This document shows positions 3,589 through 3,777 of a DNA stretch of 5,076 nt, piece after piece; within the stretch, counting starts at the first letter, position 1, and the number at the start of each line of letters is the position of its first letter. Source of the DNA: a virus (taxonomy: Duplodnaviria > Heunggongvirae > Uroviricota > Caudoviricetes). The notes under the pieces were generated by a model. That model searched no databases. It was not told where the DNA came from and worked only from the letters and a program-made list of their open reading frames with translations. The translations under genes were made by a program, and so were the position numbers. The stretch lies in the IMG/VR virus record IMGVR_UViG_2663762849_000013. One strand, given 5' to 3'.

Positions 3589-3777
3589 TTATCCAGCCGG
3601 TGTTTCGTTATTCAGGTACAGCGATACTTTTTTTACCGGGAGGCATTCACCAGAAATTTTTTGCTCGTCTCTTGCCTGGAGGCAGGATTCTTTACTGGCA
3701 TAAATTCCGGTAATCACATTCTGTGATTCACCCGTTATAAGAAAAACCGTCATCATCAGTGCAAATGCTGAAGTCAT
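3589..3777 (-). CDS. ydfD: YdfD-like small membrane protein (Qin-type prophage lysis/toxic peptide family)
   Basis: The 62-aa ORF has a hydrophobic N-terminus (MTSAFALMMTVFLITG). Its ATG overlaps the dicB stop in an ATGA arrangement (3774..3777), indicating translational coupling. Size and position directly downstream of dicB match ydfD of the Qin dicB operon. Confidence 0.6.
   Translation of the reverse strand: MTSAFALMMTVFLITGESQNVITGIYASKESCLQARDEQKISGECLPVKKVSLYLNNETPAG

Follow-up and report, generated by a model that had tools for sequence, protein, structure and literature searches.

The window analysed here, a 5,076-nucleotide stretch of DNA from a Caudoviricetes virus (IMG/VR record IMGVR_UViG_2663762849_000013), carries ydfD in the early-left (pL-like) operon of a lambdoid prophage of the Qin/PPompW type. 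The operon runs on the minus strand in the order ydfC, DicF, dicB, ydfD, exonuclease gene, xis and int. Its ydfC (4531..4749, minus strand, 72 aa) bears that name in RefSeq, matches PHROG 1744 (E=9.8e-39) and is 97–100% identical to K-12 at the DNA level. The DicF small RNA (4137..4188, minus strand) matched Rfam RF00039 with 76.7 bits, against a gathering threshold of 48, over the full model (positions 1–52). The gene for the cell-division inhibitor DicB follows (3774..3962, minus strand, 62 aa); its product scored 125.5 bits with the Pfam DicB model and 114.2 bits with NCBIfam NF049927 (cutoff 100), is 63% identical to K-12 DicB and ends in a C-terminal allele that we call window-type. Next come the ydfD-like gene (3589..3777, minus strand) and the exonuclease gene (1022..3493, minus strand). 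DicF, dicB and ydfC thus lie on one strand in K-12 order, and the whole order matches ydfC, dicF, dicB, ydfD, ydfE of K-12. The same placement is seen in phages mEp460, Tritos and HannyBb, in PPompW phages and in Klebsiella phages, all of which carry a ydfD-like gene flanked by the repressor/immunity region on one side and by the exonuclease, excisionase and integrase genes on the other. An intact relative integrated next to ompW has its ydfD gene in the same repressor-to-exonuclease interval.

Decay of the prophage copy

In the window, the sequences of ydfD, dicB, DicF and ydfC are intact. The prophage itself is decaying and disrupted by insertions. The left end of an IS1 element, comprising its inverted repeat and the start of insA, occupies 4842..5076 (plus strand; Pfam scores of 77.1 and 32.6 bits for InsA domains) and is inserted in a ydfB-like gene upstream of ydfC. 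In genomes free of IS1, similarity to the window ends at 4841, a position that maps within the 42-aa ydfB-like coding sequence of the intact relative, and beyond this site the relative continues with the ydfB-like gene, a DUF1391 (ydfA-like) gene and the repressor gene. Because IS1 lies inside the ydfB-like gene, the window module is cut off from the repressor-controlled promoter, and a promoter scan found no minus-strand sigma-70-like site between IS1 and ydfD. IS1 is classically polar in either orientation. We infer, assuming such polarity here, that the dicB–ydfD operon of this copy would be poorly transcribed, if at all.

The exonuclease gene (ydfE / Exo VIII-like, with an Rv2179c-like 3'-5' exonuclease domain at 202.9 bits in Pfam) is broken by an amber codon at 2939–2941, where TGG of the intact relative has become TAG. 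It is read as two in-frame ORFs of 184 and 632 aa, and the gene of the intact relative measures 2472 nt. At the far end, positions 1 to ~103 of the window are the end of an IS600 that truncates the integrase gene.

The ydfD-like gene and its family

The minus-strand ORF at 3589..3777 is intact, starts with ATG and encodes 62 aa (MTSAFALMMTVFLITGESQNVITGIYASKESCLQARDEQKISGECLPVKKVSLYLNNETPAG). The plus strand reads tcat at 3774–3777, which is ATGA on the minus strand, so that the ydfD ATG (3777..3775) and the dicB TGA (3776..3774) share 4 nt, as a prior sequence-only reading of this DNA had claimed. A GGAG Shine–Dalgarno core lies at 3785..3788 (minus strand), 7 nt 5' of the ydfD ATG and within the last codons of dicB. 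A repeat scan of the plus strand also detected an inverted repeat of 8 bp at 3578..3599 whose loop holds the ydfD stop codon; its arms would be able to pair in the minus-strand mRNA as well.

Three lines of evidence rule out a chance reading frame: a full-length match to DUF1482, the kept (A/G)TGA junction with the preceding gene described below, and a pN/pS of 0.25 in the ydfD frame among 24 distinct alleles of the window clade. In the same alleles, 20 of the 33 variable sites fall at third codon positions, and the gene is under purifying selection. Two antisense ORFs, at 3523–3726 and 3566–3703, were rejected, antisense frame 1 being interrupted by a stop codon; the pN/pS of that frame is also low (0.26), which is the artefact expected from sharing the wobble position. 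The window ORF is a genuine protein-coding gene for a small protein of the YdfD/DUF1482 family.

The window protein matches Pfam DUF1482 (PF07358) with 56.3 bits (cutoff 25, E=2.9e-15) across model positions 1–57 of 57, and K-12 YdfD, taken from NC_000913.3, matches the same model with 91.1 bits. The alignment to K-12 YdfD that the sequence-only reading had proposed as a check is full-length and ungapped (BLASTP: 28 of 62 residues identical, or 45%; 63% positives; E=3e-20), so that its assignment of a YdfD-like protein behind dicB is confirmed in both identity and position. The protein also matches PHROG 1092 (E=6.9e-34), whose category is 'unknown function'. NCBIfam held no model matching the ORF. 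RefSeq names near-identical E. coli copies, located between dicB and the exonuclease gene, 'DUF1482 family protein', and database entries in the window clade are sometimes named 'YebW family'.

YdfD of K-12 Qin (b1576, 'lysis protein') shares with the window protein Cys32, Cys45 and an N-terminal (A/T)F(A/V)L...TVFL..GE motif. Its gene occupies the same place, directly behind dicB, with which it shares the same 4 nt (ATGA), and ahead of the exonuclease gene. The window allele differs in being 62 rather than 63 aa long, with Leu63 absent, and in being paired with a different C-terminal allele of DicB. YebW of E. coli K-12 and YebW-like proteins belong to the same Pfam family; members of the YebW type start at MFALV and carry an extra pair of cysteines at alignment columns 12 and 18. 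In an alignment of 33 family sequences, no column is invariant except C32 and C45, and both cysteines are present in the window protein. Leu7 and Val8 are conserved in at least 90% of the 33 sequences and Gly16 is nearly invariant; the window protein has L7 and G16, with Met in place of Val at position 8. Since its first cysteine is residue 32, it has no lipobox, again as first read.

The family is, as far as profile searches can tell, narrow. Searched with a profile, 1.84 billion representative proteins gave 82 clusters at E<=1e-3, and those that could be placed taxonomically are from Enterobacteriaceae or their phages; a scan of genome contigs with a closer alignment gave 8 loci. Within E. 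coli, by comparison, a 901-bp query spanning exo'-ydfD-dicB-DicF matched 4646 of 5426 complete genomes, with a median of 2 and a maximum of 9 copies per matching genome. An identical YdfD-like protein is encoded in 21 of 80 IMG/VR prophage contigs and also in Escherichia albertii. The window gene is a catalogued one, with annotations in thousands of E. coli genomes and a published lysis protein as its K-12 homologue; as a gene discovery the locus carries little weight.

A tight junction with the preceding gene

The gene directly upstream of ydfD is dicB in 79 of 81 loci. Among 254 related loci, the 4-nt dicB/ydfD overlap occurs in 219 and a 2-nt spacer in 28, which together account for 247. 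The junction itself reads ATGA in 225 of the 254 and GTGA in 24, giving (A/G)TGA in 249. Both the window-type and the K-12-type allele classes retain a Shine–Dalgarno-like core at -11 to -13, as do relatives from Klebsiella and Citrobacter; in the two classes the core falls in different C-terminal codons of DicB.

Tight junctions are also formed with other partners. The DUF1482 gene of Klebsiella phage ST13-OXA48phi12.4 shares 4 nt with an unrelated gene of 37 codons, and the DUF1482 genes of Salmonella phage SW-37 and of Citrobacter phage Omnitron each share 1 nt with an unrelated gene of 66 codons; in the Klebsiella, Salmonella and Citrobacter phages the DUF1482 gene always lies between repressor and exonuclease genes. 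Taken with the dicB overlaps, these arrangements argue that a tight start/stop junction with the preceding small gene, whatever the type of that gene, is a conserved property of the DUF1482 family.

Given this overlap architecture, ydfD would be translationally coupled to dicB. The ydfD start overlaps the dicB stop and has a GGAG of its own, so that ribosomes finishing dicB would most likely re-initiate on ydfD, and YdfD would thus be made together with DicB.

The hydrophobic N-terminus

The sequence-only reading took residues 4–16 (AFALMMTVFLITG) to be a hydrophobic helix. Papers on the K-12 protein, too, describe a hydrophobic domain at its N-terminus. The hydrophobic character stood: residues 1–16 are uncharged and contain an apolar run of 13–16 residues, with a Kyte–Doolittle mean of 2.1 over 13 residues. 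The helix found no support, given a 19-residue insertion energy of +6.2 kcal/mol and a beta-strand at this place in both of two AlphaFold2 runs. On the transmembrane and signal-peptide questions raised by the same reading, an approximate hydrophobicity scale gave no score compatible with membrane insertion over 19 residues, and the N-terminus has no positively charged n-region.

In the first AlphaFold2 run, made with the 33-sequence alignment by a method that does not consider membranes, strands were predicted at residues 5–12, 18–26 and 43–47 and a helix at 29–39, with a mean pLDDT of 78.9 and values of 80–91 over residues 1–50. The second run, with a K-12-type sequence placed first, gave the same topology at a mean pLDDT of 81.8, with values of 80–92 for the paired strands 5–12 and 18–26 across the two runs, and K-12 YdfD is accordingly predicted to have the same beta-beta-alpha-beta fold as the window protein. 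A pair of cysteines found in relatives bears on this model: at alignment columns 12 and 18, both residues are Cys in 10 of the 33 sequences and never one without the other, and it is precisely at this pair of positions that the predicted hairpin closes. Their co-occurrence supports an N-terminal hairpin. The YdfD-like protein is therefore modelled, as most likely, as a small beta-beta-alpha-beta domain whose hydrophobic N-terminus is the first strand of the hairpin, a segment that is probably a buried beta-strand and not a membrane helix. In the model, the two invariant cysteines would sit in the helix and in strand 3. The strand is hydrophobic on both faces, which suggests oligomerisation or peripheral contact with a membrane. 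Searches by sequence returned no solved structure (best E=0.61), Foldseek found no significant match in the PDB (best E=1.2), and in BFVD its only matches were weak, to small phage proteins that are themselves uncharacterised (best E=0.03). The beta-hairpin reading and the extra co-occurring cysteine pair are mildly new points.

We weighed this buried-strand model against a membrane-inserted toxic peptide, with an N-terminal transmembrane helix like those of Hok, phiX174 E and holin-like peptides. The uncharged, hydrophobic residues 1–16 would suit such a helix, as would an insertion energy of about -0.3 when only 15 residues are taken. An association of YdfD with the cytoplasmic membrane was reportedly also proposed by Masuda in 2016. 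The term 'membrane lysis protein' has been applied to YdfD (PMC9782134). We nonetheless consider the membrane peptide improbable. The apolar run of only 13–16 residues ends at Glu17, and the best 19-residue Kyte–Doolittle mean is 1.31, below the usual threshold of 1.6. Over 19 residues, the insertion energy of +6.2 kcal/mol compares with -4.7 for HokD and -3.4 for phiX174 E, and none of the 33 family members has a 19-residue segment below zero (minimum +3.4), these energies being approximate biological-hydrophobicity sums. Flanking Lys or Arg residues are missing as well, with none among residues 1–28 of the window protein, and distant members have His, Arg or Gln inside the run itself, for example WALVVHALVNGD. 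The FALV motif is conserved in the N-terminal segment, which would be unusual for a mere anchor, and both the confidently predicted strand and the perfect co-occurrence of Cys12 and Cys18 speak for the hairpin. Finally, tagged K-12 YdfD has been purified as a soluble protein, and the enzyme that it binds is cytoplasmic.

A second possibility is an exported periplasmic mini-protein, with a Sec signal peptide cut after (I/V)-x-Gly16 and a DsbA-made disulfide between the two invariant cysteines. The run has the length of an h-region, and on the insertion scale the window N-terminus scores similarly to the Lpp signal peptide. Small or neutral residues occupy positions -3 and -1 (I-T-G followed by E here, V-S-G followed by E in K-12), Gly16 is nearly invariant, and full invariance is confined to C32 and C45. 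Even so, we regard export as very improbable. In 28 of the 33 members the hydrophobic run is not preceded by any Lys or Arg, and certain members begin directly with MFALV. Cys12 and Cys18 straddle the putative cleavage site, so that both cysteines must belong to the mature protein, and AlphaFold2 pairs residues 5–12 with residues 18–26. In K-12 YdfD, moreover, removal of 1–5 N-terminal residues reduces toxicity, and the N-terminal 28 residues bind the cytoplasmic enzyme IspG.

Function by homology with K-12 YdfD

In PMC8835842, which cites Masuda 2016, K-12 YdfD is described as a lysis protein that, when induced alone, kills cells and lyses them. Its toxicity was seen again in a second study, in which induction of ydfD mRNA correlated with lysis phenotypes (PMC9782134), and the earlier statement that YdfD is reported as toxic or lytic in Qin therefore holds for the K-12 allele. 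Lysis is prevented by DicB or SulA (PMC8835842). The same work found that K-12 YdfD pulls down and co-elutes with IspG, with a Kd of 18 uM; that over-expression of ispG, or HMBPP, rescues cells from it; that every N- or C-terminal truncation tested, as well as L63A, lost killing; and that cysteine mutations left IspG binding unaffected (PMC8835842). In the K-12 model, YdfD would bind and inhibit the isoprenoid enzyme IspG and so starve the cell of the undecaprenyl carrier needed for the septal wall, with division-dependent lysis as the result. We found no independent confirmation of the YdfD–IspG mechanism in the literature; it rests on one K-12 paper.

The model follows the same principle as the single-gene lysis proteins phiX174 E (target MraY), Qbeta A2 (MurA) and phage M Lys (MurJ), in which a small phage protein blocks the supply of wall precursors, and in both cases lysis depends on division or growth (PMC8835842). 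These proteins are not homologous to YdfD, however, and IspG, the target proposed for YdfD, is a cytoplasmic enzyme that acts ahead of lipid carrier synthesis. YdfD has no transmembrane helix of the phiX174 E type. Unlike single-gene lysis genes, ydfD also belongs to an early operon, and the tailed temperate phage that carries it has lysis genes of its own.

By homology, over-production of the window YdfD alone would be toxic, an expectation drawn from the K-12 allele only. Several differences weaken the transfer of function. The window protein ends ...PAG at Gly62, a length shared by 81 of 254 loci (across the family, proteins naturally end in PAG, PAGL or PAGLKTAP), and it therefore does without Leu63, which K-12 YdfD reportedly needs for killing: cells with the L63A form, or with a K-12 protein short of its last residue, survived on plates. 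The synonymous divergence between the window and K-12 ydfD genes is saturated (dS ~1.4, dN ~0.54, dN/dS 0.40), which weakens the transfer further. From residue 17 to the end, the net charge is about -1 in the window protein and -4 in K-12 YdfD; with the region behind the hairpin so close to neutral, the idea that an acidic C-domain blocks the substrate site of IspG (PMC8835842) would not carry over. As a whole, we consider it fairly likely that the window holds a YdfD-family gene coupled to dicB, encoding a small beta-domain protein that is toxic if over-produced, in an operon cut by IS1.

The sequence-only reading had further described DicF, DicB and this protein as a three-part growth-inhibition module. 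The grouping agrees with the literature, where the three already appear as 'Qin toxins' (PMC11430063). A simple additive module it is not, because co-expression of DicB abolishes lysis by K-12 YdfD.

These points call for caution with YdfD as a model or antibacterial lead: the assumption of a transmembrane N-terminus is probably wrong; the only invariant residues are two cysteines, for which we found no reported role in killing; the common 62-aa allele does without a residue reported as essential in K-12; and the conserved early-operon place and the coupling to DicB argue against lysis as the natural function.

Natural role

Since ydfD is joined to dicB, DicB, the suppressor of YdfD lysis, should be present whenever YdfD is natively expressed. 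Given this presumed native co-translation and the early-operon position, lysis seems unlikely as the natural role of YdfD. One alternative is that the protein is an early-operon accessory that modulates host metabolism or the envelope, either in the lysogen or upon prophage induction, and causes lysis only when over-produced without DicB. We regard this as possible, though on balance somewhat doubtful. It is compatible with assignment to the YdfD family and differs on physiological role alone. In its favour, in isolated phages and prophages alike the gene always lies between the immunity region and the recombination genes and not in a late lysis cassette. Its translation would be linked to that of DicB, and DicB co-expression abolishes lysis by K-12 YdfD. 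Deletion of ydfD barely altered dicBF-dependent resistance to lambda (PMC6832061). For the DUF1482 paralogue YebW, the reported effect of over-expression was greater resistance to ceftriaxone, gentamicin and levofloxacin and not killing (PMC9676061), and natural C-termini vary in the family even though removal of one residue abolishes K-12 killing. Against it stand the correlation of K-12 ydfD mRNA induction with lysis phenotypes (PMC9782134) and the lack of positive evidence for a specific non-lytic function; PADLOC gave no match for the window gene, and the PHROG category is unknown.

The closest parallel in position is lambda Kil, together with other small host-interference genes of the pL operon, which like ydfD lie between immunity and recombination genes and are toxic when over-expressed. 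The parallel is one of position and regulation only, with no sequence relationship between Kil and YdfD. Functionally, Kil corresponds to DicB, which inhibits the formation of the FtsZ ring. The dicBF operon has itself been likened to the pL operon (PMC10448788).

A divergent allelic cassette

Over ydfC and DicF, in the first third of dicB and again in the exonuclease gene, identity between the window and K-12 Qin is 95–100%. Sliding identity falls to 48–67% only from ~3900 to ~3523, so that the 3' half of dicB, ydfD and a short spacer form one divergent cassette (3523..3900, minus strand), and the same peak of diversity is present among 180 distinct loci. Within the cassette dS is ~1.4–1.8 and dN/dS 0.3–0.5. 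Such ratios with saturated dS led us to reject diversifying selection as the cause, and indicate instead, on the pattern of substitutions, that the cassette represents old alleles exchanged by recombination.

More speculatively, DUF1482 proteins, K-12 YdfD included, might not be membrane peptides but small soluble or oligomeric beta-beta-alpha-beta domains with cysteines, made early in the development of lambdoid phages and in fixed ratio with the preceding gene product (DicB in E. coli), serving by nature to modulate the host and not to lyse it, with DicB and YdfD matched much as a toxin and its antidote are. We think this rather unlikely; if it were true, the sharply bounded cassette of the dicB 3' half and ydfD would reflect matched pairs of alleles. 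The C-terminal allele of DicB and the allele of YdfD are indeed perfectly linked in 246 sampled loci. Mosaic YdfDs with window-type residues 1–43, the N-terminal two-thirds, are nevertheless found behind K-12-type DicB, so that functional co-evolution of DicB and YdfD would only be a speculation. Two natural mosaics, P0089 and P0092, bridge the window and K-12 alleles. The sharp bounds of the allelic cassette are themselves a mildly new point.

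A divergent dicB-ydfD cassette and its mosaic relatives

The 3' half of dicB and the adjoining ydfD form an allelic cassette (~3523-3900) with ~50% DNA identity to K-12. The dS of this cassette relative to K-12 is 1.4-1.8, and its flanks are 95-100% identical to K-12 Qin. The cassette is anciently diverged. The N-terminal 27 residues of DicB are conserved; over the C-terminal 35, two major classes and two rare ones can be distinguished.

The YdfD proteins P0089 and P0092, found in the related loci L256-L260 (2316-2704), are natural mosaics of the two allele classes: their N-terminal two-thirds are window-type and their C-terminus, which ends in PAGLKTAP, is K-12-type. 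A K-12-type DicB precedes the mosaic YdfD in these loci; in one of them (L256), an antirepressor-like gene (Phage_ASH/pRha) takes the place of ydfC/DicF upstream of dicB. We also observed a dicB-ydfD-exonuclease region of the E. coli type in a contig (L090, JAGZPX010000007.1) that binning had placed in a Veillonella parvula MAG; the region shares ~92% identity with the window. This locus is almost certainly a binning contaminant.

Partners and variants of the DUF1482 family

DUF1482 genes also overlap small upstream genes, start to stop, in Klebsiella, Salmonella and Citrobacter phages (L084, 3391-3692; L085 and L086, both 3301-3698). The upstream partners in these three loci are unrelated to DicB and belong to PHROGs 22279 and 3722; they may be unrecognised functional counterparts of DicB or Kil, which inhibit cell division.

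Within the family, two alignment columns, those that match residues 12 and 18 of the window protein, both hold cysteine in 10 of the 33 diverse members aligned, and none of the 33 has a cysteine at just one of these columns. Members with the extra pair, YebW-like proteins among them, are four-cysteine variants (C12, C18, C32 and C45), which could reflect a disulfide that closes the hairpin, or else a metal site.

Lysis by K-12 YdfD has been attributed to inhibition of IspG (PMC8835842). That paper gives ME-cPP the chemical name of HMBPP and vice versa. It reports rescue by externally supplied HMBPP, a charged diphosphate, and did not include an IspG enzyme assay. In our judgement, the proposed mechanism merits independent confirmation.

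Surroundings of ydfD and state of the prophage

The stop codon of ydfD, TAA, falls in the loop of an 8-bp inverted repeat, TGGCTGGA...TCCAGCCG, at 3578-3599, and the spacer that precedes the exonuclease gene contains a second small hairpin (3536-3549). A role for both in RNA processing or stability is possible. The exonuclease gene itself (1022-3493, minus strand, downstream of ydfD) spans 823 codons, but a single change from an intact E. coli relative, TGG to TAG at 2939-2941, splits the frame into ORFs of 184 and 632 aa, which makes it a pseudogene in the window.

Insertion sequences are present at both ends. The left end of IS1 and the start of insA (4842-5076) lie inside a ydfB-like gene, ~90 bp upstream of ydfC; going by the layout of intact relatives, this element cuts ydfC-DicF-dicB-ydfD off from a ydfA-like gene, the repressor gene and the promoter region. 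At the other end, ~103 bases (1-103) match an end of IS600, of the IS3 family, beside a shortened lambda-type integrase ORF (93-731; 212 aa) that keeps the arm-binding domain and part of the central domain. Together, IS600 and IS1 suggest a Shigella-like or IS-rich E. coli host.
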